Shown here: positions 5,895 through 64,000 of the stretch, one piece after another
Position numbering within the stretch: the first letter of the stretch is position 1
Layout of the letters: every line of letters starts with the position of its first letter
Source of the DNA: Eledone cirrhosa
Lineage: Eukaryota
Length of the DNA stretch: 64,000 nucleotides
Direction: 5' to 3'
Assembly (NCBI GenBank): GCA_964016885.1
Contig: OZ024742.1
Location: 48,546,001-48,610,000, forward strand
Translations under genes and position numbers: made by a program
The notes under the pieces: model-generated
Told to the model about the DNA's origin: nothing
The model's input: only the letters and a program-made list of their open reading frames with translations
The model's database searches: none

Positions 5895-6193
5895 ATATAA
5901 AGAAAAAGAGATGAAATCGAAAATGCAACTGAAGTCTTATTTTTTTTTAAATATATATATTTATTTGGTTTCTTTACCGGTTTCGCAGTTCAGATGTGAG
6001 AAAAACCACAGACCCTCCATCTCAACTCACCTTTTGAAAAGCAGAAGAACTGCGAAACCGGTAAAGGAACCAAATAAATATATATATTTTTTTAAAAAAT
6101 AAGACTTGCATTTTCGATTTCATCTCTTTTTCTTTATACTTCCACTCGTGTAGGACACCTCGGTTATTTTTCATTTTGTAAAAAACACCTCAC

Positions 6194-23446: not shown

Positions 23447-25069
23447 ACTACTGCCCTATAATATTAAATATATGAGTCATTAAGGAATGTAAAACATGTA
23501 TATTAGTCTAACACGTGTTTCACCAAATCAAAATTGAAGAAGGTTTTAGATGCAACAAGTTCCTTAAGCTGCGTTATAGTAGAAGAAACCACATTTATTT
23601 CCATTTTGTATCCTCAGAGGCATTAGAAATATACAAGAATTATTGGAGGAGTGTATCTGCAAAGCTAAAACACAATTTTAGTAGTCTAATATTTAGTGGG
23701 GTTTTAAAAGTCTTTGACGTTTGATGTGAAGAAAGCCCATAATAGAAAAAATATGTCATGAGTGGGTGGAATATTCAATTGACATTGAGTGTTGAGATCG
23801 TTTACACTAAATTAATTTATTGTAATATAGTCAAATGATAGAGATTCTCAGATCAAATCGGCATTTTTGAAACTTGAGGTGATTCTATATATCACGAATT
23901 GTTACATTGTTATCTTCTTTATAATTTATATGTGGAGGTTTAGTATATTTTTGTTACACTTTGCCGTGTACTATAACCAACGTTTGTAAACCAATACGCC
24001 CATCAAGATACCAGGAATATATATTATAAGAGAAGATCAAAACATGTGTATCTATCGCATAGTATGTTCTTCAAACACGAAAGCAGATGTAATTCTTTCA
24101 AGTAATATAATTTATACTTTTATACTAGGCTTTCCATTTGAGGTTTTATCAATAAAAAACTTTTCAGCCCAAACCTTCATCACATATTTTCTTTGATACT
24201 CAGAGAAAACCGCCTAAAGAAACATGAGACTAACCTGTTTTACTTGTTTTCTAGAGATATTACCCCCCTCTCTTACTTTTTGCTTCCAGGTATGAAAACG
24301 AATCTCTTTAAACTAGTATTCATAAGCAACGCAGTATTACTTATTTGGCTCAACAGCATGATATTAATTAAAAGTTGCTGGCGTTGTTTCGTACCATTGA
24401 TAGCCACTCAAATATTTGTCTTGATGGATATATATATATATATATATGAAGAAAAAAATGATGAAATCGAAAATGCAACTGGAGTCTTATTTTTAAAAAA
24501 ATATATATATTTATTTGGTTCCTTTACCGGTTTCGCAGTTCTTCTGCTTTTCAAAAGTAGAGTTGAGATGGAGCGTCTGTGGTTTTTCTCACATCTGGTT
24601 GGTCTTTGAATGTTACTTGTATTATAGGGAAAAAAGTGGCTCGAACGTCAGGTTTTTAGAGAAGTAATTTGATTGGTTGGTCAATAAGTATAATACATTT
24701 CGCGTGCCGTGTGCACAAATTACAGAAATTATATATATATATATAATTTCTGTAAGTATCTGGGTTACTGGATGTGGTAACAACATTATTCTCAATGCTT
24801 AGGCAGGGTGTATAAATGAAATATAACAAGACAAGGTGATTCCAGTTCCTCCGAGGAATAACAACACAACCAGGAGCTGGACATATCGATGTATTGACGG
24901 AATAAAATAGACTTCAACAACATGTGGATGTCTTTTCCACACAAATTCCGACTTCCTGAATAGTTCACAGCCAATGATGGCTGTCACCGAAATATATATA
25001 GAAGTATATCTATAATTTATAATAAACGAAGCCAAACTTTACATATTTGACTTAATTATTATATTTTAT

Positions 25070-25386
<317 letters not shown>

Positions 25387-26245
25387 CTGTAATTTTCTGG
25401 GTTACTGGATGTGGTAACAACATTAATCTCAATGCTTAGGCAGGGTGTATAAATGAAATATATCAAGACAAGATGTCCAAGATGGTTGGACCAAGGACCA
25501 TTCTTCTCTTATCGACCCAACATGCAGATGGAAGTTTGTCATTTATTAGGTAGCATGTTTTACGAAACCATTGATGCAAGAGTTTACTTTATAACATATT
25601 TTTGCCATTGAGCCAATCATCTGTGAAACATACGTAATTTGCCGTCAATCAATATCAAATTTCAGGATGAAGCCCATCTTTCTATCCTTAATACACACAC
25701 ACACATACCCCCCCCCCCCCACATATATATATATATATATATGTAGATAAATCTACCATATATATCTGTATATATATATATATGGGGGGGGGGATATGTG
25801 TGTGTTCGTGGGTGTATGTATTTGTGTGTATGTGTGTATGTGTGTGTGTGCAAATTACTGGTGGTGCGAAAACGAGCACTCAATGCGCAGGAAGAATGTA
25901 TATATTAAGAGAACGGATGAAGCTTCCTTTACATATGTCTAGGTGTTCTTTGTTTTGTATAGATCACTTACTTGTGTTTCGCAGTGTGTTTCAGGTTATG
26001 AATCCGACTCCATTATAGGTCTGCTCCTCAGACTGTTGATTCAACAATCCTCTGCGAAACGCACATAACAGATGTAAATGAAACTTCATTGTTTTTCTTT
26101 ATATATAGATATATGAAAAACCACAAACCCTCCATCTCAATTCTACTTTCGAAAAGCAGAAGAACTGCGAAACCGGTAAAGGAACCAAATAAATATATAT
26201 TTAAAAAAAGAAAAGACCCCAGTTGCATTTTCGATTTCATCTTTT

Positions 26246-28410: not shown

Positions 28411-31400
28411 TATCACAGAAAAAAGTGAATCAGTGTTGCGACGAAAGGAATTTATTGGACATATTACAAATGTCTCGAGGCACGATCGATATGTTGATCA
28501 TACCTGACTCTGAAATCTCTCGGTCATCGGGTACGTCTCGATTCTACGAAGCAGATTTTCCTACGTTCCTTTAACATCGAATGTCTTCGTTTGTTGATTC
28601 CACGAGTGGTCAAAAATTGTAAACGTCACCGGTATTTCTAGCCAAACATGGTTGCCCACTTCTTGCTTCTTCTCGTTCTCAACCTGTCAATGAAAATTAC
28701 TTCATGTATCAGAATTTGTACTGAAGTGGTAGAGGGGCTGTAATCTTGAACGGCTGGCATCACTTTGACATCTTCATTGCCCCTAGGTGCCTTAGTCTAC
28801 ATCGGTCAGGTACACACCTGCAATTATGCTGTATGCGGCATTCATCATAAATAATGTTTTGCGGGAATTAAAAAAAAAACCAGATCATAGGTATATTTAG
28901 CGTTACATTTGTAGAACACAGCTGTTGTATACAGTCCGTCATACATATTTGAAAAAGAAAAAGAAAAAGAAAAAGAAAAAGAAAAAGAAAAAGAAAAAGA
29001 AAAAAACCTATATCAGAACATTTTTTTAAAAAACGTTTTTAAAAGAAAGATTTCAACAGCCATTCAAACGGAAGGGGTATATCAAATGTGTTTTCAGAAA
29101 ATAGACACCATTCTACACTCAGACACTAGGCTCAGGGGAGCGTGCATAGCCAAGACGCCGCATATATATATATAGGCAGATGAGAAAAAAAAGAAAAATC
29201 CATGGAAAGTCATCCGTACCTCCACGCATACATGCTCAGAAAAATACATCGACCTATGCATGCGCACACCCGTGCTCATGGATGTCTGTATGGGCACATA
29301 TACATACATACATGCACCCATGTGCTCCCACAGCGGATGCAAATACTCGATGAGTAACCCTCCATCCGTCTACGAACGTGACCTTGACCCAACCTGATCA
29401 CGTGGCGGTGAGTCCGAGGGTGCCTGCACAATATGCCAAAATGTTACGGCAGCACAATATCCCTGGACTAATCGCATATAACGTGGGTGGTACATATATT
29501 AAAAAACCCTGTACGTACATAACGTAAAATAATGAAATAATATACAATAATAATATAAATTAAGATAAAATACAATAAAATAAAATGCAGGAAAAAGAGA
29601 ATGCATACATGACAAGGATGCAGAGGGGGACCGGTCATTATCGAGATGTTCGTAAAGTTTCATACAATAGTTGGGGGCTGTGGTGCAAATGTTTATATGA
29701 TATACATGGGGGATGGTGAGCTAAGGCACTGGGTGGGAGCCTGCGCGTGATGCAGGTCTCGTTGCTTGTGGATGGATACGTGCACAAACAAGTTATATAT
29801 ATTGAGTTTATGTGCAACAATCATTTCATAAAAGTATGTGTGAGATGTGCATGGGTTTGATGTATACATGGATTATAAAGAGTACGTGCTTCATAACGAT
29901 ATATATGGAATGAACGTGGAGTGTATGTATGATGAAATGTGACATTGGCATGCGTTGTGTGCGTATGTATATCAACGGCATGGAACGACAAAATTAAAAC
30001 GTGAAATAAAACCAAAATTAAAATTAAAATTAACACCAACATTACAATTAGCTGCGACATTAACCTTAAGAGCAGCACCATGTCTATCATGCAAGTCGCG
30101 GATTAAACACCGCGAATCGCATATCGGAAATCGATAATTTAAAAATGTTAAAGTTTGAATATTTAGAAATTTGAAAATTTAAAACGACACATATGTTTGT
30201 ATATCCAATCGTACTTGTAATGAGTCGGCGTCCGCAAATTGGTGTGGTGGTTCTATAAAGGTATTCTACGAGGTGTGCAACTTTGGAACTGTCATTGCTG
30301 TCAACATGTGCTGTCATGCATTCAAAGTTGTGTAGTGTTCTATTGTGGTCGGCTGTACGCGCTCCACCTGGTGTTGCGGTGCCGGTGGTGCGCTATGTAG
30401 ATCCACCCGGTATCACTATGGCGGAGATTGTGCATTTACGTTTATGTCTGCATGCCATGATTATTTCAGACTTGAGGTTGACTGCGTCACTCTTAAGTTT
30501 TATTATCTCCATAGACTCGGACAGGCATAACTTGCACTTCCTCTCTCCGGCCGAGTACGCATTCGCATGCTGAACAATACCCCATATGGGGTCATATTCT
30601 ATGCCACTGTCTTTGAGTCTCCATACTAAGTCCGCCAATCTGGTGGAGTACCTTTTGTTCCTGTCCTTGAACGAGCTCTTGTGGTTGTACATCCTCGACT
30701 TAAAAGTCGTGGATGTAGCTCCGATGAATGTGTGCCTATCGTTGTGCGTGGTAACCATACATCTATAGACAATGCCCTTAGTCAGGCACATTCCCTGCAG
30801 GGGGCACTCTTCACGGCCACGGCAGTTACATGTCCGTCCATCATTTTTCCAACACCCGTTACGTGGTCCTGGCATCTTATTTGTGTTCTCATCGCTCCTC
30901 GAGTGGTGCTCCGCGGAGTGGTCGACTCAATGTTCACCACCAGCTGGTCTCTGCTGGCAGGTCTGGGGCCCTCCGCATCCGCGGCACTGCACCCAAGCAC
31001 GTCCCCAGAAACTTCTGCCGCAACCGCGTGCCCTCCCCGCAACCCCCGGCGAGCCTGGTGCCTGATCGTTGCGCCCATGAGGTGTCCTCAATTTCAACGC
31101 GTTGGTCTTGGCCATGTAGTCTGCCATGTTGGGTGCGTGGAAAATGAGAACTTCACGGTGTGCCGATTGAAAATTTTGAGGTACCTGTGTGAAGCCGGGA
31201 AACACTCGTCGAATGCCCTGAGGAAGAGACCTGGCATGTTAGTGCGTACATGCTTCGAGTATGGCGCATTAAACATTTTACGTTTCTATATCTATTTCTA
31301 TTTCCAGTCTGCTACTAGTGGTGTTTGCATTATCAAGCTGCTCTCTCGGGTTAAGCCCTACTCCTAATTGACCCCCCCCCCCCCTCATTATATCCCTATG

Positions 31401-33818
31401 CATAGAACTGTTACTTAAGTCTGTGGAATGGCCTTCCCTGGCTAAGTTGTTCTGGGCTGTTGCTAGCCCTATTTTCCGTCTCTGTCCTTACCCGAGTCTC
31501 CTGTTGTATCATTGCTGGTATTCTTAGTCTTGGTATTACCCCTAGTGCACCGGGCTGTGTTATCTACTTCACCCTCTATGGATTGCGCGTCCTGGTCCGT
31601 GGAGTTACTATTGTTCCCTTCGTATGCGTTGTGGTCCCTATGGTTCCCGAGCTCCCTCAACTGTCTATGCGCTGTGAGGCCATCACTGTCGTGTTTAATA
31701 CTCCTATCTATACTGTTGGGTGTTTGCTTACGGGTAGGCTGTCTGCCTAAGTTATTACTAGCGGTATCCGGGTGTTTGTGTTCCCCGCAATGCGGCCTGC
31801 CCTTGTCCGGGATATACACTATGGATTATGTGTACCCTGCCCTGCCCAGTGCCTCATTGTAGTAGTCGGCTTGCTGATAGAACACATCCACATGTGTATA
31901 CTCGGGTGGAAACCCCCTTGCCTATGGCGTCAATAACCGACCTGGGGTGGTTTGAGTGCCTGTTTACATACTGCAGGTTCTCGTTGGGCTTGTGATATGG
32001 TCGGTATAAGGCTGTATCTAGTTCTAGTCTAGGAAAGTTACTGTCTTTTACTGTCTTAGTACTATTTTCTACAAGCCCGGATAAGCCGTGCTGCTTAAAG
32101 AAATGTGAGATGCGCTTCCGTATGCGCTCCAGCTGGATAGAGTTTAATGAGTGGAAGGTAAATAGGGCATCGTTCCTATATATCAATCCGCCTATCCCTG
32201 GAATCTCCTCTGCTAACCTAGTGCGTAGATAACTTCCCATCAAGTCCGTCACATGTGTGGATCGCTCGAGCACATAGTGATGTCGAAACTGTCGGTCTGT
32301 CTCTCCTTTCCCACAGTCTACCGTCAAACCTAATGAGTGCCTTTCTAGCAGCTATAATGATGTCCACTTTCCTCTACTTAAGTTGGACCTTGCCCTAGGG
32401 TCTTGTTTACAATTACTGGTGAGATAGACTCGTAGTAATCTGCTATATCCAGCTGCACAAAGTTCACTTGCTGTTTGGTGGGCAGCGCTGTAAACCAGTC
32501 TATAACCTCCTTAGTGGAAGTCCATATGCTAAGTCAATTTCTATTCATAAGTGTGGGCAGTATCCTATCCATAATATTCTTACTGGCCGTACCTAGGTCC
32601 GACTTGGAGGGTGCTATTTTCTAACCGGGAGGTTGGTCTTAAGTTCTAATTTATGGTCCTTGATGGAAATCCGCGGTTTTATAGGTACGTATTGTTCTGT
32701 TCTGTCTGCTACTTCCAGTCCTGTCATTAAGTTTTTGGTCGTGTAGTTGATTCTGTCAAGGTTGTCCTGGCCCGTAATCCTATCAATCTTCATAATCTAT
32801 TTCTCCATGCATTTTCTGTAGGTTCCGTGGTTCATCCTGTAAATGTTACCCCTCTTATCCGAAGGTACAAGTAAGTCCGGGCAACTCTCCATGCTTTTAA
32901 TCTTGGAGCTGATTTCTTTCAGGTACTGGTTTCCGCGTGCTGCATTCCTGTTGAATGTTATGTTCCTTACGATGTTTACTATGCCGTTTTCGAAAGTTTC
33001 TAGTGCCCCGTTGTGCGGGTGGTGTCGTCTGGACATTAAAATCCTCCTAAGTCGGACGCGGGTGATGTCCTGAGTCTGTTGTGTATTCCCGTGGTCGTAG
33101 TGGAAGGCGCGCCATCTCATGCTCCTGACAAATGAGTTGGTGTGGTGGCTGAGTAGGCGAAAGTGGGTGTTTTCCGAAGGTATCGGGATGTCTTTCGACG
33201 CGGAAGAGTACTGGAATCGCTCCATGGCAATTCGCTTCAAGCGCTCGACTTGTGGAGGAGCAAAATAATTGGTATTGGATGCTTAAAGCGTCAAGTTGCG
33301 GTAGGCCATATGAGCACTAGATGCCCTCGTGGAGCAAAGTATGGTATCACAGAAAAAAGAGAATGAGTGCTGCGACGAAAGGAATTTATTGGACATATTA
33401 AAAATGTTTCTCGGGCGACCAGTTCGAAGCACGATCGATATGTTGAACATACCTGACTCTGAAATCTCTCGGTCATCGGGTACGTCTCGATTCTACGAAG
33501 CAGATTTTCCTACGGTCCTTTAACATCGAATTTCTTCGTTTGTTGATTTAGATCCTGTTGTTGTCATTCCATGAGTGATCAAGAACTGTAAACGTCACCG
33601 GTATTTCTAGCCACTTATGGTTGCCCACTTCTTGCTTCTTCTCGTTCTCAATCTACCAATGAAAATTTCTTCATGTATCAGAATTAGTACTGAAGTGGTA
33701 GAGGGGCTGTAATCTTGAACGGCTGGCATCACTTCGAAGTGTTCATTGCCCCTAGGCGCCTTAGTCGGTCAGGTACAAACCCGCAATTATGCTGTATGCG
33801 GCATTCATCATAAATAAT
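28411..33818 (-). mobile_element. Near full-length Naiad-like Penelope element with direct pseudo-LTRs
   Basis: Direct repeats 28411-28855 and 33345-33818 carrying HHR relics flank a decayed RT+EN ORF. Confidence 0.85.
30393..33240 (-). pseudogene. Disrupted PLE RT plus GIY-YIG endonuclease
   Basis: SKDIPIP..MRWRAFHY, SDKRGN, QLDIADYYESI, GLIYRND, YHKPN..LQYV..SNHP, FNAPY, CxCx5Cx5C, IVY..FIG.T.TTFKSR..H, CKLC, CRH. Confidence 0.9.
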
Positions 33819-35238: not shown

Positions 35239-35283
35239 AATATTGGACTAGTTTCGATGTTGTTACATCTCATCAGCAATATT
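35239..35283 (-). ncRNA. Intact type I hammerhead ribozyme
   Basis: aatattg CUGAUGA gatgt-aaca-acatc GAAAC ta GUC caatatt. Confidence 0.92.
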
Positions 35284-35703: not shown

Positions 35704-35748
35704 AATATTGGACTAGTTTCGATGTTGTTACATCTCATCAGCAATATT
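35704..35748 (-). ncRNA. Intact type I hammerhead ribozyme, second unit
   Basis: Identical to 35239-35283. Confidence 0.92.
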
Positions 35749-39009: not shown

Positions 39010-39390
39010 TGTAGATAAATCTACCAAGAGTTTACGGTAGTGTCCAATCCGTATGAAGAACTCAATGTAATCCGGATATCATGGAAAGAAGAGATGCAAT
39101 GAAAAATCACTTTCGGTGAAAGATAAACGGAATACAGAGTCAAGATAAAATATTAAAAAAATAATGAATAAAACAATTTCTGAAGACGGCATATATATGT
39201 GTTGGTATGTATATTTAATTTTGATAGTTTGTATAATTTTGTATAATTTTGTACATAGATCTGTTGAATATGCATGCCAATTCTAACACATATATATCCT
39301 AGAAACGATCGTTAAATAATGAACTTTTTTTGTTTAATATAAGGAACTGTTTCATTGTTTTATTCATTATTTTTTTAATATTTTATATAT
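39010..39390 (+). mobile_element. PLE terminal fragment with long-stem-II HHR (39176-39317) and inverted flanks
   Basis: attt CUGAAGA [115 nt hairpin] GAAAC gatc GUU aaat; 39145-39177 is the inverse of 39353-39386. Confidence 0.7.
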
Positions 39391-56296: not shown

Positions 56297-58266
56297 GAAA
56301 AAATGATATTATTGAAAAAATGATTGGGACAATTCTTTTAAACAAATGTTTTATAATGTATATGAAATATATCAAGTATTACCGGTTTCGATGTATCATT
56401 AAAATTCATGAGGAACCTCCTTGCATTACTACAAAAATACCGCAGTAGCCTAACCACAAAAGATCGTGAATACAAGTATAATACAAGTGTTTTCTACAGC
56501 TTACCGAAGATACATAAATGTAAACTCATAAGCAATGCCTGTGGCACTTCGACTAACAAATACATACAATTAACACCACCAGAAGACTTAAAACTGAGAC
56601 CAATTATAGCAGGCCCTGCATGTGAAACCCACAGACCTAGAAACTTCCTGGACATCCTAATAAAGCCCTTACTAACACATATACAGAGCGACATAGGGAT
56701 GACTTTGATATGCTGAACCATCTACCCAAAACAGTAACTGAAAACACAATTATTGTCTCCCTTGGCGTAGTAAACCTCTACATAACATACCCCATAACCA
56801 TGGAATAACAGCAATCCAGTATTGACTAGACACTCACCAATTTGAAATACCAACACGCATCAACAAAATCTTCCTTATTGATGGACTCCGATTTATCTTA
56901 CAGAATAATTTCTTTACTTCCATTGACTCAACATCCCGACAAATCTCAGGGACTGCAATGGGCACAAAGGTAGCCCCCACATACACCAACTTAGTCATGG
57001 GATTCCACGAATAACAAATCTACAACCAATTCCTTCTATTATTCGGAGACTCTCTCCTTACACATCTCGAAAATAATTGGAAGAAATACCTAAAAGATTG
57101 CTTCATACTATGGCAAGAAGATATGATTACACTCACTCTTTTCAAAAATATGATTAACTACATTAACAATAATATACAATTCACAATGGAATCCAAGTCC
57201 AAGGAATTAGCCTTCTTGTATCATCTCATTCTAAAAACAGATGGGAAAATAGAAACAGACATCTTTTATAAACCCACGGACTCCAAACCACGGACTCAAA
57301 TATCCCAAAAACATACAAAACTTAACATTCCTTTAAATTTAGCCAAATGTATGTGCACCATAGTATCAGACCCAGCTAAACGGGAACGAAGACTAAATGA
57401 ACTCAAAAACACACATACCTTAAAAGCCTTCCCACTTGACATAATTAATAACGGAATTGACAAAGCAAAACACGCAAATTTGCATCAACCCAACAGCCCA
57501 AAGCGCAGAACCACAAACAATATCTTACCATATGTATCCACGTTTAACCCCAGATACACCGAAATGTTCCACCTCCTACACAAAACCCCCCATTCTATTT
57601 AAAGATGGGAAAATGAAAACATTCTAGAAACACACAATATCATCAAAAGCAAAAGACAACCAAAATCACTAAAACACTTTCTCACTGGAACAAATATACA
57701 AAAACGTATCTCCAGCCTTATGGTAACAAAATGAGGAAGAACAAACTGTGAAAGATTCCTATACTTAACTGAAGGACATAAATACACGTTTAAAGATAGC
57801 CAAACTTTCACAGTGAAAAACAACTTCATCTATGTGATAACATGCGGCAGCTCTCGACATAACTATATAGGACAAACAGGGTGACATTACGCAAAAGAAT
57901 GACCATCCATTGCCAAAACATCCGGGACGTAAACACAAGGAAAATCCCCTTAAGTAGCCACATTGCAGATTGTGCAAGAATGATTCTACCCAACTTTAAA
58001 ATCTTCCTTCTTTACAAGTAATCCGATTCTTTCACTCAACAACAAAGAATAAACAAGAAAAAACTATTTATTAACAAATTTAAACCAAAATTAAATATAT
58101 AATCAGCCCCATTAGATCCCCCCCCCCCTCCCACACACACAACAAAATAATTTTTAGTTTTTGACATTTTTCTGAATTTTGAGGAAAAAAATTTAAAATT
58201 TCCCACCACAAAGGGACCTGTGAGAGACAAGCTGGAGCGCCCCCCCCTCCCACATATGTGCATTGT

Positions 58267-59252: not shown

Positions 59253-59574
59253 CCTTATATATATACATTATTATCGAAACCGATAATAATGTATATACAT
59301 TATATACGTTATATACGTTTCACTAAAAGAATTGTCGCTCACATTCTTTAAGTAACGTCATTTTTTCAATAATGTCATCTTTTCTATAATGTCACTTTGA
59401 CAAATCAAAGAAAGGATAAAAAAAGAAAGTCAGACCCTTAAATACATTTTCCATGCTATTTCCAACTTCACCTTTTCTCTAAATCCACTGTCTTGTATAG
59501 AACCTTACTTACCTTTTTTAATATATATAAGTTAAAACAATGAAATTGAAAATCAAGTCATTAGAAATATACTT

Positions 59575-59713
59575 CACTGCTTTACGATCGTTTCTAGGTG
59601 ATAATACATCGTAAATATACTTTGTTTTCGATCTATGTAAGGTTAGTTACAAAATATCAAATAGGGAGAATATGTACTGACATGCATATCACCAGCTGTT
59701 GTCAAAAGCAATG
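59575..59713 (-). ncRNA. HHR with U3-A8 core and long stem II (second copy 62751-62882 +)
   Basis: cattgctt UUGACAA [long hairpin] GAAAC gatc GUA aagcagtg; 8-bp stem I. Confidence 0.72.
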
Positions 59714-60484
59714 AGAATTTTATTCAAAATTTGTAGTAAATTAGTAGTAAATTAAGTTCTATGACCTCATTTGGAGGTAGCTGAAGAACAAACCAAACAG
59801 ATTGTTTTTTTCCATATGATATTAAGATGAAAAATAATTCACTTTAGTTGAGGTCATGACCCTTTGAAAGGAATGGTTGAATGGTGTTAACAGTAGAATT
59901 GCTATAAAGAATGTATTAGGAAAAGGGGGATTGTCAAATTGATAGTTGAATGTATATGGTATAGTAAAGTTTAAAAGGAATGTAAAAATTAAATGTTGTG
60001 TTGTGTTGTATGGAGTTTTTAGGAGAATATAAATTAAGTTCATGACTAGGAAAGATAGTATATTAAAAGATGAAAATTATAAGATAATGAAATACAGTAA
60101 TACAATAATATAATACGGTGTGGTAAATTGTACATAGTATAATACAGCGTATGATACGTCTTAAAATACTTGTCCATATATAAATAATCAAACTCAGATA
60201 ACTGTATGTTGACATATTCAAAACGATATGAATTTCATAGATCACAAAATGCATATACCCACATTATAGATAGGGGAATAGTTATATTGATACACAATGA
60301 AAAAACATACATACGTATAAATAGATGTAAACATATACATACATCTATATATGTGCACACAATCATATACATATATATATTTATATATATATATTCACAT
60401 ATACACACCTATACACACATATATATATGTATATGTACACACCCACATAAACACTCATACACATATAGACGCATATACACACAT

Positions 60485-60595
<111 letters not shown>

Positions 60596-60678
60596 GTAGG
60601 AGGTGAGTTTTATTGTAGTACAATAAAGCAATGCAGATATCGGATAAAAAGCACTCTACAATTTGTAGGACTGGAGTA

Positions 60679-61012
60679 TATATAATATATAAGAACAAAA
60701 GATGGTTAAAAGAGTTCCATGTATTTTATTATACGCATTTCAAAAACAAATATCATCATGCAATAATATTTGTGTTTTCATCAGATAAAACAGGAAGACA
60801 TGATATGAAGGTTAAAAAACACTTGTGGATAGTGCAGTTATGTTGATTTAAAACTGCACTACCCACAAGTGTTTTTTAACCTTCATATCATGTCTTCCTG
60901 TTTTATCTGATGAAAACACAAATATTATTGCATGATGATATTTGTTTTTGAAATGCGCATAATAAAATACATGGAACTCTTTTAACCGTCTTTTGTTCTT
61001 ATATATTATATA
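60679..61012. mobile_element. Head-to-head palindrome of about 330 bp with an HHR on each strand
   Basis: + HHR 60901-60967: ttttat CUGAUGA [stem II] GAA atgcgcat A ataaaa; - copy 60724-60790; decayed family copy at 28161-28300. Confidence 0.85.
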
Positions 61013-64000
61013 TATATATATATTCACATATCATACATAGATACATATATACTCATGCAATTACGGGTGGTTGTGTAACTTGTTGCATAAATCTAAGGAA
61101 GCTAAAACATTAAAAGGTAAGATAGTTAGTGATACGGTTGTATTGTGATTTTGTGTTATGTTGTTTTTGTGTTGGTGATTTGGGTGGTTGTGTTTTCCAG
61201 GTTGAAGGATTGTATTATTTGTTCTTTTAAAAGGTGCAGTCCTATTTAAATTATGTTGTGGTGGTGTGGTCATATTATTTTTAAATTTATAAATGTTGTA
61301 GTTGCTTATTTTTTGCTGGAGTTTGTTTGATGTAGAGTATGAGAATTTAACAGTATACCTGTTAAATATTTGGTGGTATCTGTGGTTTGGTGGAAAATGT
61401 TAATGTAGAATTTCGAAGAATTTTTTGGGGATTTTCCAATAGTATGCAAGTTGAAGGGTGCGTTGTACCATGTTATGTTTCTTTTGCGGTTTTTAGTTAA
61501 GTTTGTATTACCATTTATATTAATGTGCTGTGTTATAGAAGAATTCCTATGGTTAGTATCTGTATTTGTGGAATTTGGTAAATTGCAGTGGTTGTATTTG
61601 GTGTTATTATTGGGTAGATTATGAGAGGTTGAATGCTTGATATTCATATGTGAGTTGATAACATTAGTCATAGAGCGTGTAGTAATAGTTGTGGTTTTTC
61701 GGTTGTTTGGTGTGATGGGAATGACCCCATTAGGTATTTGTTTCGATGGTATTTTTTGGTGTTTGTAGTTTTTGCTAGGTTTTATATTTTGGTCCATAGT
61801 AGTGTTGGGGATATATGAAATGTTTTCTTTATATCCACTTCTAGTTAAGGCCTCGTTGTAGCAGGGTGCATTATTATAAAATATATCTCCATTGGAAGAT
61901 AATTTAAAAAGTCTAAGAGATATGTTATATACTAATTTTTTGAGTATAGAGCCAGGGTGGTTAGAGCGTGAATGTACATAGTGTAGATTCTGGTTGGGTT
62001 TGAGGTAAGGTTGATAAATATTCGTATAGAGGTCTAAGGTAACATCAATGCAATTAGGTACTTTTGAAGTGTTTTCAAAGGTGATGTTATGGTTGTAATA
62101 GTCCTTGAGGAATTTTCTAATTTGTTTTTTTGTTTTTCTCTATATTAGAATTGCTAAGATTGTTAGATAACAATAGACAATCATCCCGATAAAGACCACC
62201 TTTGAGGTGGGGAAATGTATTTTAAGACGTATCATACGCTGTATTATACTATGTACAATTTACCACACCGTACGGGGCCGATAAAATAAAGTTCCAATAA
62301 TGTACTGGGTAATTGCTGGCCTTGTGCTTAAAGTAGAAACAATTATATTATATTATTGTAATACTCTATTTCATTATCTTATTATAATTTTCATCTTGTA
62401 ATATACTTTCTTTCCTAGTCATGACCTTAATTTATATTCACCTAAATTCTCCATACAACACAACTCAACATTTGATTTTTACATTCCTTTTAAACTTCAC
62501 TCTACCATATACATTCAAATATCAATTTGACAATCCCCTTTTTCCTAATACATTCTTTATAGCAATTCTATTGTTAACACCATTTAACCATTCCTTTCAA
62601 AGGGTCATGACCTCAACTAAAGTGAATTATTTTTCATCTTAATATCATATAGAAAAAAACAATCTCTTTGGTTTTTTCTTCAGCTACCTTCAAATAATGT
62701 CATAGAACTCAATTTACTACTAATTTACTACTAATTTTGAAAAAAATTCTCATTGCTTTTGACAACAGCTGGTGATATGCATGTAAGTACATATTCTCCC
62801 TATGTAACTAACCTTACATAGATCGAAAACGAAGTATAGTTACGATGTATTATCATCACCTACAAACGATCGTAAAGCAGTGAAGTATATTTCTAGTGAC
62901 TTGATTTTTTATTTCATTGTTTTAACTTATATCATGACTCTGTTTTCCTTTTAATGTTTTGTTTTCCGGGATTTATTTTAACCTACAACATTTTCAACAT
63001 ATTGATTACATTGAGTTCTTCATGCAGACTGGACTCCACAACTTACCGTGGATATCTCTGTGTATTTTGCTCCTTCAATATATTTTTTCATAATTTTTTC
63101 CACTTCTGTGATTATAATATTTAGTTGAGCTCTTTTTTTTTTTATCTAATTCCTGCATCACAATGGAAAAACAATATTTGGGTACCTCGTTGAAGAATAT
63201 TCCAATTCCACCTAAAGATGAATATCTACTCTTGCTCATACAAAAGACTAACCAATTTATTAGGAGAATGTGATGAAGGGCCTATCATTTTGACAACAAA
63301 ACCAATACAGATGAAATGAAGTACCGCTATGGATTCAAAACATACGCAAATCCCCCTCATAATATTCAACTTGAAAATTTTGAGAGCGCCCTACTGAACA
63401 TGATTAAAAACATAAAGTTCAGAAAACAGAAATCTGAATTCCAAAAGGGATTAGACTCTACTCTTCGACCACTGAACAATTCAAACAAGGTCGATGTTCA
63501 TTCTGACGAAACTGGTACTTTGTACCATATGGATATCGATAAATATAACCAGGTCATATATAAAGAACCTAGAAAAAACTATAAGAAAGCAAGCACCACC
63601 GCACTGACATCCTTGAACAACATATCATGTGATATAGTAAAATAAACTCCATATTGAAGATAGAACTGAGCCTTTCACAACCTAAGAGCCCGCACTTCAA
63701 CCTGAAGGACTATAAATCTTACTTTAATTCGAACCCATCTATTAGACTGATATGCCCATCAAAATCTGATATTGATAATATCAACAAGAGAATTATTGAT
63801 CGTATCATTCCACACATTAGTAAATGTGTAACACTTCCATTATGGGATAAAACTTCCCAAGTTACTGAATGGTTCACTAGCATAGAGAATAAAAACTCAG
63901 CTTCATTCATTGAATTCGACATTGATTCTTACTATTCTTCGATTTCTTCAATTCTTTTAAACAAAGCACTGATCTTCGCCAGAAATAGATCGGATTTATG

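Follow-up and report, generated by a model that had tools for sequence, protein, structure and literature searches.

Family A of the Penelope-like elements (PLEs) in the genome of Eledone cirrhosa carries in its pseudo-LTRs a type I hammerhead motif in which a U3-A8 core pair is fixed and helix II is extended into an arm of about 100 nt. Three sister families share the arm and have C3-G8 in the core, and the U3-A8 pair of family A is most likely one derived compensatory switch. The element described here is a decayed retrotransposon which, by its motifs and its by-eye likeness to the published alignment, belongs to the Hydra clade. We consider it probable that the motif, with its fixed U3-A8 pair and rod-like helix II, is a dimer-dependent processing site that is likely assisted by protein. 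The stretch of DNA analysed, hereafter the window, comprises 64,000 nt (G000:C3:48546001-48610000) of the 3.0-Gb genome.

Hammerhead copies and host element

A descriptor scan of both strands of the window located a type I hammerhead with an intact core at positions 59574-59714 of the minus strand (copy A). The core, UUGACAA, occupies 59699-59705 (minus strand) with U3 at 59705 and A8 at 59700, and cleavage is predicted after GUA, between 59583 and 59582. Helix I consists of 9 bp (59706-59714 with 59574-59582) and not of the 8 bp given in the initial annotation, whose description of the U3-A8 core, a stem II of about 100 nt and a palindromic stem III agrees with our analysis. The helix II insert of 104 nt (59595-59698, minus strand) is predicted to form an irregular rod (z -3.0), and GAA followed by the palindromic helix III ACGAUCGU was matched by the descriptor at 59584-59594 (minus strand), with A17 next. 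In family A, helix III comprises 2 bp in the monomer or is dimeric through this palindrome. Helix II is not closed by a Watson-Crick pair beside the core, where a C.A mismatch is followed by 2 bp. The 10.1-11.1 pair is C.A in all four families (A-D); a Watson-Crick pair at this position is usual, not universal, and U.U is found there in active natural hammerheads and frequently among Hydra hammerheads (PMC8557442, file S2). The whole copy A motif folds at -35.8 kcal/mol, below 200/200 dinucleotide shuffles (z -3.9).

A second motif, copy B, is located at 62750-62883 of the plus strand. It has the same UUGACAA core with U3-A8, as the initial annotation had noted for both pseudo-LTR copies, and a 97-nt insert. 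G12-A13-A14, A15.1-U16.1 and H17 are present in copy A and in family A; copy B has C at 62863 (G12C), where the other aligned copies have G, and is predicted to be inactive. In its arm 10 nt are deleted, and with them the 5' arm of the tip module described below is lost. A third hammerhead copy lies 4.16 kb past copy B, outside the window. An alternative core, CUGGUGA, a few bases downstream was rejected for want of a helix I partner. Rfam gave nothing at gathering level within the window and, for one sister copy, two chance miRNA matches only (E 4.9 and 8.9). The type I hammerhead motif at this locus is real.

Self-alignment places the hammerhead in the pseudo-LTR of a PLE, in line with the initial annotation, and gives the order of the element as an inverted truncated copy, a pseudo-LTR, an ORF and a second pseudo-LTR ending in (TA)n, a layout reported for PLEs (PMC8557442). 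The inverted, 5'-truncated copy (59525-62215, minus strand) contains the 3' part of the RT and the 3' pseudo-LTR; most of its endonuclease region is absent and another hammerhead family is inserted. This family is seen at 60677-61014 as an inverted pair with C3-G8, a 36-nt helix II and helix III AUGCGCAU. The 5' pseudo-LTR of the direct copy (62342-63065, plus strand) shares 91% identity with its 3' counterpart, which lies outside the window (L031:4502-5241) and runs into (TA)n. Loose ends at 62932 likewise continue as (TA)n, in 16-23 contigs per sequencing run. Near the pseudo-LTR end, at about 63003-63060, a block GGA.TACATTGAGTTCTTCAT and a small hairpin are conserved across families, the hairpin reading CCAC/GTGG in family A and CTACC/GGTAG in C and D.

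The Hydra-type RT-endonuclease ORF starts at 63163 (63163-64000 in the window, plus strand) and continues to about L031:3790, beyond the window. It is broken by two stops at codons 37-38 (63271-63276), which fall at the RW motif in this copy, and by frameshifts; the description of the host as a coding PLE therefore holds for family A and fails for this copy. The hammerhead said to lie about 280 nt upstream of the ORF start is copy B, while copy A, to which the initial annotation was attached, is ~3.45 kb from the start and on the opposite strand. The domain order is RT first and endonuclease region last, the linker of this copy reads CNCRNRSIC (CxCX5C), and SDKTG is found in family A (L070) and family D (L062) with SDETG in this copy. 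An intact 813-aa sister ORF contains RWR, DKT, CNCRNKANC, CRLC and CNH (CxCX5C, CxxC and CxH, compared by eye with the published Hydra features, in which the last two flank the conserved E and N and CCHH is absent) and gives a weak Pfam GIY-YIG match near residues 700-733 (E 0.0019, below the cut-off). RT followed by endonuclease, DKT, RW[K/R], CxCX5C and (TA)n targets are the features described for the Hydra clade, while the endonuclease of Naiads is N-terminal to the RT (Craig et al., 2021; PMC8557442). Membership in the Naiads, to which the pseudo-LTR had been likened, was rejected on the RT-then-endonuclease order and on DKT instead of DKA; with CxCX5C, these features point to the Hydra clade.

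Pfam assigned none of the six ORF fragments of this copy to a family, and a homologue search with a 110-aa RT piece, limited to longer proteins, gave 131 candidates, none significant. Metagenome contigs contained no match to the arm pattern and 103 pattern matches to the sister RT, none of them confirmed, and the comparison is thus confined to one species. Two further PLE remnants are found in the window: a distant decayed Hydra-type element at 30426-33225 (minus strand, ~36% identity to the sister RT), beside which a hammerhead was not found, and decayed RT fragments of a non-Hydra PLE at 56366-57602 (plus strand).

Core type in family A and its relatives

U3-A8 is fixed in family A. We aligned 34 rows, two of them loci taken twice, and in the 32 distinct copies, the best-matching of 1,420 candidates, both C3 and G8 are absent (32/32). 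Genome-wide, exact patterns for family A yielded 966 U3-A8, 6 C3-A8, 4 U3-G8 and 0 C3-G8 copies, with reversed-pattern controls at 0, and so C3-G8 or uncorrelated variation at the two positions, which the initial annotation had set against its own reading, was not what other copies displayed. The 10 single mismatches have the appearance of post-insertion decay. Upstream of one family A ORF, that of the chimeric L052, lies a C3-G8 repeat. Mixed tandems were observed at L052, L064 and L070, where an ORF immediately follows the pseudo-LTR or the ORF of a different Hydra family.

A search for sister elements by protein, in which 150 of 11,836 candidates were scored and 20 regions taken, identified three groups (B, C and D) with 60-70% identity to the N-terminal piece of this copy. 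Their hammerheads have the same helix III, a 92-115-nt arm and the core CUGAAGA, that is C3-G8. The long-arm motif pattern has 6,534 matches in the genome (control 1), and among the first 100 listed 96 are C3-G8, mostly from the young family D. Among 15 selected copies, nine have CG and six have UA as the 3-8 pair, and 99.3% of 300 cells are paired. Two helix I pairs are also swapped between family A and its C3-G8 sisters (AU/GC and UA/CG), giving three double changes that separate the two; these fall on one branch and consequently represent one lineage contrast, which the covariation shuffle control overstates. Pairs with a change on both sides were not in excess over shuffles (256/500). Within the helix I context of the sisters, A8 was seen in 21 copies; each of these is a single mutant with C3-A8, and U3-A8 does not occur. 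Family D is young and may still be active. It has numerous intact, nearly identical ORFs (open frames of about 830 aa, e.g. L062:2387-4828) and tandem copies ~6.6 kb apart; one of its long-arm hammerheads, with C3-G8 and a 115-nt arm, lies in the window at 39168-39325 (plus strand).

An RT tree was built from 57 stitched rows, all from the Eledone cirrhosa genome, and repeated on 23 representatives that exclude duplicates, fragments and the chimeric L052. Family A is separated from the rest with a UFBoot support of 99 and the long-arm lineage from four outgroup families with 100, and B groups with C+D (81). On this tree, U3-A8 stands in family A and C3-G8 in B-D. The surroundings of the four in-genome outgroup ORFs yielded no intact hammerhead and only one partial motif, which is C3-G8 and has a short helix II. 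The polarity of the 3-8 change is based on published Hydra hammerheads, 26/26 rows of which (25 families) are C3-G8 with loops II of 3-10 nt (Craig et al., file S2; PMC8557442). By parsimony, the arm would have arisen on the stem of A-D and U3-A8 once, on the stem of family A. The long arm does not depend on U3-A8 and predates the divergence of families A-D. An ancestral U3-A8 was rejected, both the sister families and the published Hydra motifs being C3-G8.

A short U3-A8 family is also present in the window, at about 5970-6070 and 24520-24560 (minus strand) and 26140-26185 (plus strand). Its helix II (GCAG/CUGC) and helix III (ACCGGU), as in the motifs at 6030-6066 and 24523-24559, are unlike those of family A, helix I has only 3-4 bp, and position 4 is C in 5/32 copies. 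In longer copies an endonuclease precedes the motif; its linker is CX4CxxC and its GIY-YIG match is clear, an arrangement that in Craig's description would be of Neptune or Nematis type. Since this family belongs to another Penelope clade, U3-A8 is recurrent rather than ancestral and most likely arose at least twice in this genome; of the recurrent or ancestral use proposed in the initial annotation, recurrence is thus retained and ancestry, at odds with the C3-G8 sisters, is not. Lengthened helices II are also found in other hammerhead families among the loci analysed (about 36, 51 and 95 nt). The 95-nt helix II, of an unrelated C3-G8 family at L155:1574-1690 (plus strand), L066 and L167, looks branched into two hairpins. 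Short C3-G8 hammerheads occur in tandem at 35239-35283 and 35704-35748 (minus strand, 465 nt apart), and a further one at 25174-25226 (minus strand).

The helix II arm and the probable function of the hammerhead

The arm is predicted to fold into one irregular rod (z <= -2.5 in 21/26 inserts) with the same tip fold also in the sister families. The tip module, GAU-ANUU-UGUA / UACA-UAG-AUC (59630-59659, minus strand), is invariant at 21/22 positions in six subfamily majority sequences. In these sequences GTA.GT is invariant at 5/6, TGATA.TTTGTA at 11/12 and TACATAGATC at 10/10 positions, as against 12/68 in six other anchored arm segments, a proportion that ungapped anchoring may understate, and the flanking helices vary in sequence between families. 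TGATA.TTTGTA and TACATAGATC are predicted to form the pairings GAU/AUC and UGUA/UACA on either side of a 4-by-3 internal loop, topped by a variable loop. RNAalifold on the alignment recovered helix I and the tip, and neither helix III nor the mid-rod. That both strands are invariant suggests a module that is recognised as such rather than plain pairing. A kink-turn was rejected by eye, as no canonical stem is in register. The rod would hold its tip too far from the core for the usual contact between loop I and loop II, and the invariant tip is therefore most likely a binding site, here considered putative.

In the processing model we favour, cleavage after GUA would require two copies to pair via the palindrome ACGAUCGU and would likely be helped by the element's own protein. 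A single copy would stay off by virtue of its helix III of only 2 bp and of U3 pairing with A17. The role of the double hammerhead would be to trim transcripts that are tandem or arise by read-through. By secondary-structure energies, which leave out the tertiary core, the monomeric hammerhead fold lies 1.7-6.6 kcal/mol above the minimum and the forced double hammerhead 0.8-5.7 kcal/mol per copy below two free monomers (7/7 sequences). U3 is predicted to pair with A17 with a probability of 0.86-0.90 in 4/4 family A copies, extending helix I over the cut site, and this pairing may parallel the C3-G17 trap discussed in PMC3884650. Dimeric PLE hammerheads with low activity have been described (Cervera and De la Pena; PMC4209133) and protein-assisted cleavage was reported for a Poseidon element, where insertion in vitro did not depend on the cut and RNA ends at the cut site were not seen (Frangieh et al.; PMC11167929).

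The arm also contains candidate splice signals. A donor-like hexamer, GTAAGT in the family, is located in helix II at 62783-62788 of copy B (plus strand) and mutated to GTCAGT in copy A (59676-59681, minus strand), and the conserved block TAGTTGAGCTCT (63122-63133, plus strand) has an acceptor-like AG at 63123-63124, 38 nt before the ATG. GTA[A/G/T]GT resembles the splice donor consensus. A 5'-UTR intron could run from this donor to a TAG acceptor 34-41 nt ahead of the start codon. Splicing would then take out GAAA and helix III along with the cut site and the upstream AUGs, so that the mRNA could no longer be cut; in a folded rod the donor would be concealed, and the ribozyme-bearing template would stay unspliced. 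We regard such an intron as unlikely. The hexamer varies only at +4 among the majority sequences and stays constant while its partner strand changes, with G+5 kept even opposite G, but the donor is predicted to be paired (P mostly >0.95), GT and AG are frequent in AT-rich DNA, and the 95-nt branched helix II of the unrelated family shows no such donor by eye. TAG|TTGAG is conserved 34-41 nt before the ATG and in all nine readable leaders (11 tried) the putative intron would measure 335-434 nt and contain 5-10 ATGs, with no ATG past the acceptor; however, 35 nt free of ATG are common by chance and the leaders are related to one another. The 5'-UTR introns of Penelope and Chlamys-3 begin in the pseudo-LTR (PMC8557442) and that of D. 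virilis ends at helix I (PMC4209133). The junction was not found in genomic copies of the sister families, which counts weakly because PLE copies keep introns, and contigs of three sequencing runs (kind unrecorded) from one sample contained no intron-like joint over 62600-63400.

It is rather doubtful that the long helix II acts as a switch between splicing and self-cleavage with the 5' splice site hidden in the ribozyme. Spliced RNA would lose the cut site and upstream AUGs and be translated, folded unspliced RNA would retain the hammerhead and serve as template, and the element's protein would lock the unspliced fold by acting at the invariant tip. If true, the switch would explain why introns are kept in genomic copies of PLEs, and use of the helix II donor would link two unexplained PLE traits, retained introns and weak ribozymes.

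A competing account of the U3-A8 ribozyme itself, that it is a weakened or dead relic in a family that spread regardless and in which only RNA shape or DNA sequence matters, appears improbable. The predicted U3-A17 trap and the C.A at 10.1-11.1 are compatible with it, as are the age of family A (94% mean identity between copies, ORFs mostly broken) next to the young C3-G8 family D and the spread of Naiads without canonical hammerheads (PMC8557442). However, both bases of the 3-8 pair changed and neither lineage contains an expanded mismatch state, as would be expected under selection on the catalytic fold, and core, GAAA and palindrome are retained in three family A subfamilies. Finally, a short intron of 42-54 nt (GT...TACATAG) wholly within helix II, whose splicing would shorten the arm, is very improbable and fits less well than the longer 5'-UTR intron: GT, TAG and a branch-like TGAT that precedes the AG by 23-34 nt are the same in every subfamily, but a donor-to-branch distance of only about 19-25 nt is short for animal introns, the tip is invariant on both strands and paired beyond the needs of splice signals, and no junction copy was found in family A and 0/12 shortened sister copies fit.

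Comparison with known hammerheads and elements

U3-A8 in PLEs is already published and is not new. What the lineage adds is the conserved 92-115-nt arm, common to thousands of C3-G8 sister copies and without a counterpart in the literature searched, together with the contrast between sister families. The sister ribozymes provide a natural, clean swap of C3-G8 to U3-A8 in one scaffold, to which the likely second origin of U3-A8 in the same genome adds a comparison and the young sister family with intact 813-aa ORFs adds material; combined, they allow a direct test of the role of the hammerhead in PLEs. About 6,500 motifs of this kind in the genome would escape descriptors that assume a short helix II. 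Luense et al. (2017) are said to treat dimeric PLE hammerheads, and their work may list U3-A8 or long-arm variants. A search of the mainly open-access literature returned no report of a helix II of ~100 nt in PLE hammerheads or of a splice donor inside it, and the supplements of Cervera 2014 may show longer arms. The 'long helix II' of PMC13725137 measures 6-8 bp. A recent preprint (bioRxiv 10.64898/2026.07.22.740005) forms part of the known background.

The Cercyon PLEs of Schistosoma mansoni share with the present system a type I hammerhead in the pseudo-LTR, U3-A8 (about 1,300 matches in S. mansoni), a palindromic helix III and the dimer model (Cervera and De la Pena, 2014; PMC4209133). In contrast, helix II of Cercyon is 7-8 bp long with a conserved G10.1-C11.1, whereas here a 92-115-nt rod stands behind a C.A mismatch, and family A further differs in a helix I of 9 bp or more and in belonging to the Hydra clade. 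Among natural hammerheads C3-G8 likewise covaries to U3-A8 (Perreault et al., 2011; PMC3088659). The same work cites in vitro activity of C3-G8/U3-A8 swaps, and its section on these motifs neither links the U3-A8 hammerheads to a retroelement nor presents a long helix II. Drosophila virilis Penelope and Chlamys-3_cRei have an intron in the pseudo-LTR leader, which in Penelope abuts the hammerhead; the intron considered here is hypothetical, has its donor within helix II and would remove the cut site. With C-terminal EN+ PLEs of the Hydra clade such as Hydra-1_Obim, the element shares the RT-endonuclease order, DKT, RW[K/R], CxCX5C and (TA)n (PMC8557442), as well as the inverted truncated 5' copy, the palindromic helix III and, often, the mismatch beside the core. 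Compared with the published Hydra rows, with C3-G8 and loops II of 3-10 nt, the lineage described here has a long arm, one U3-A8 family and units >3 kb, and the hammerhead of Hydra-1_Obim itself differs from that of the long-arm lineage.
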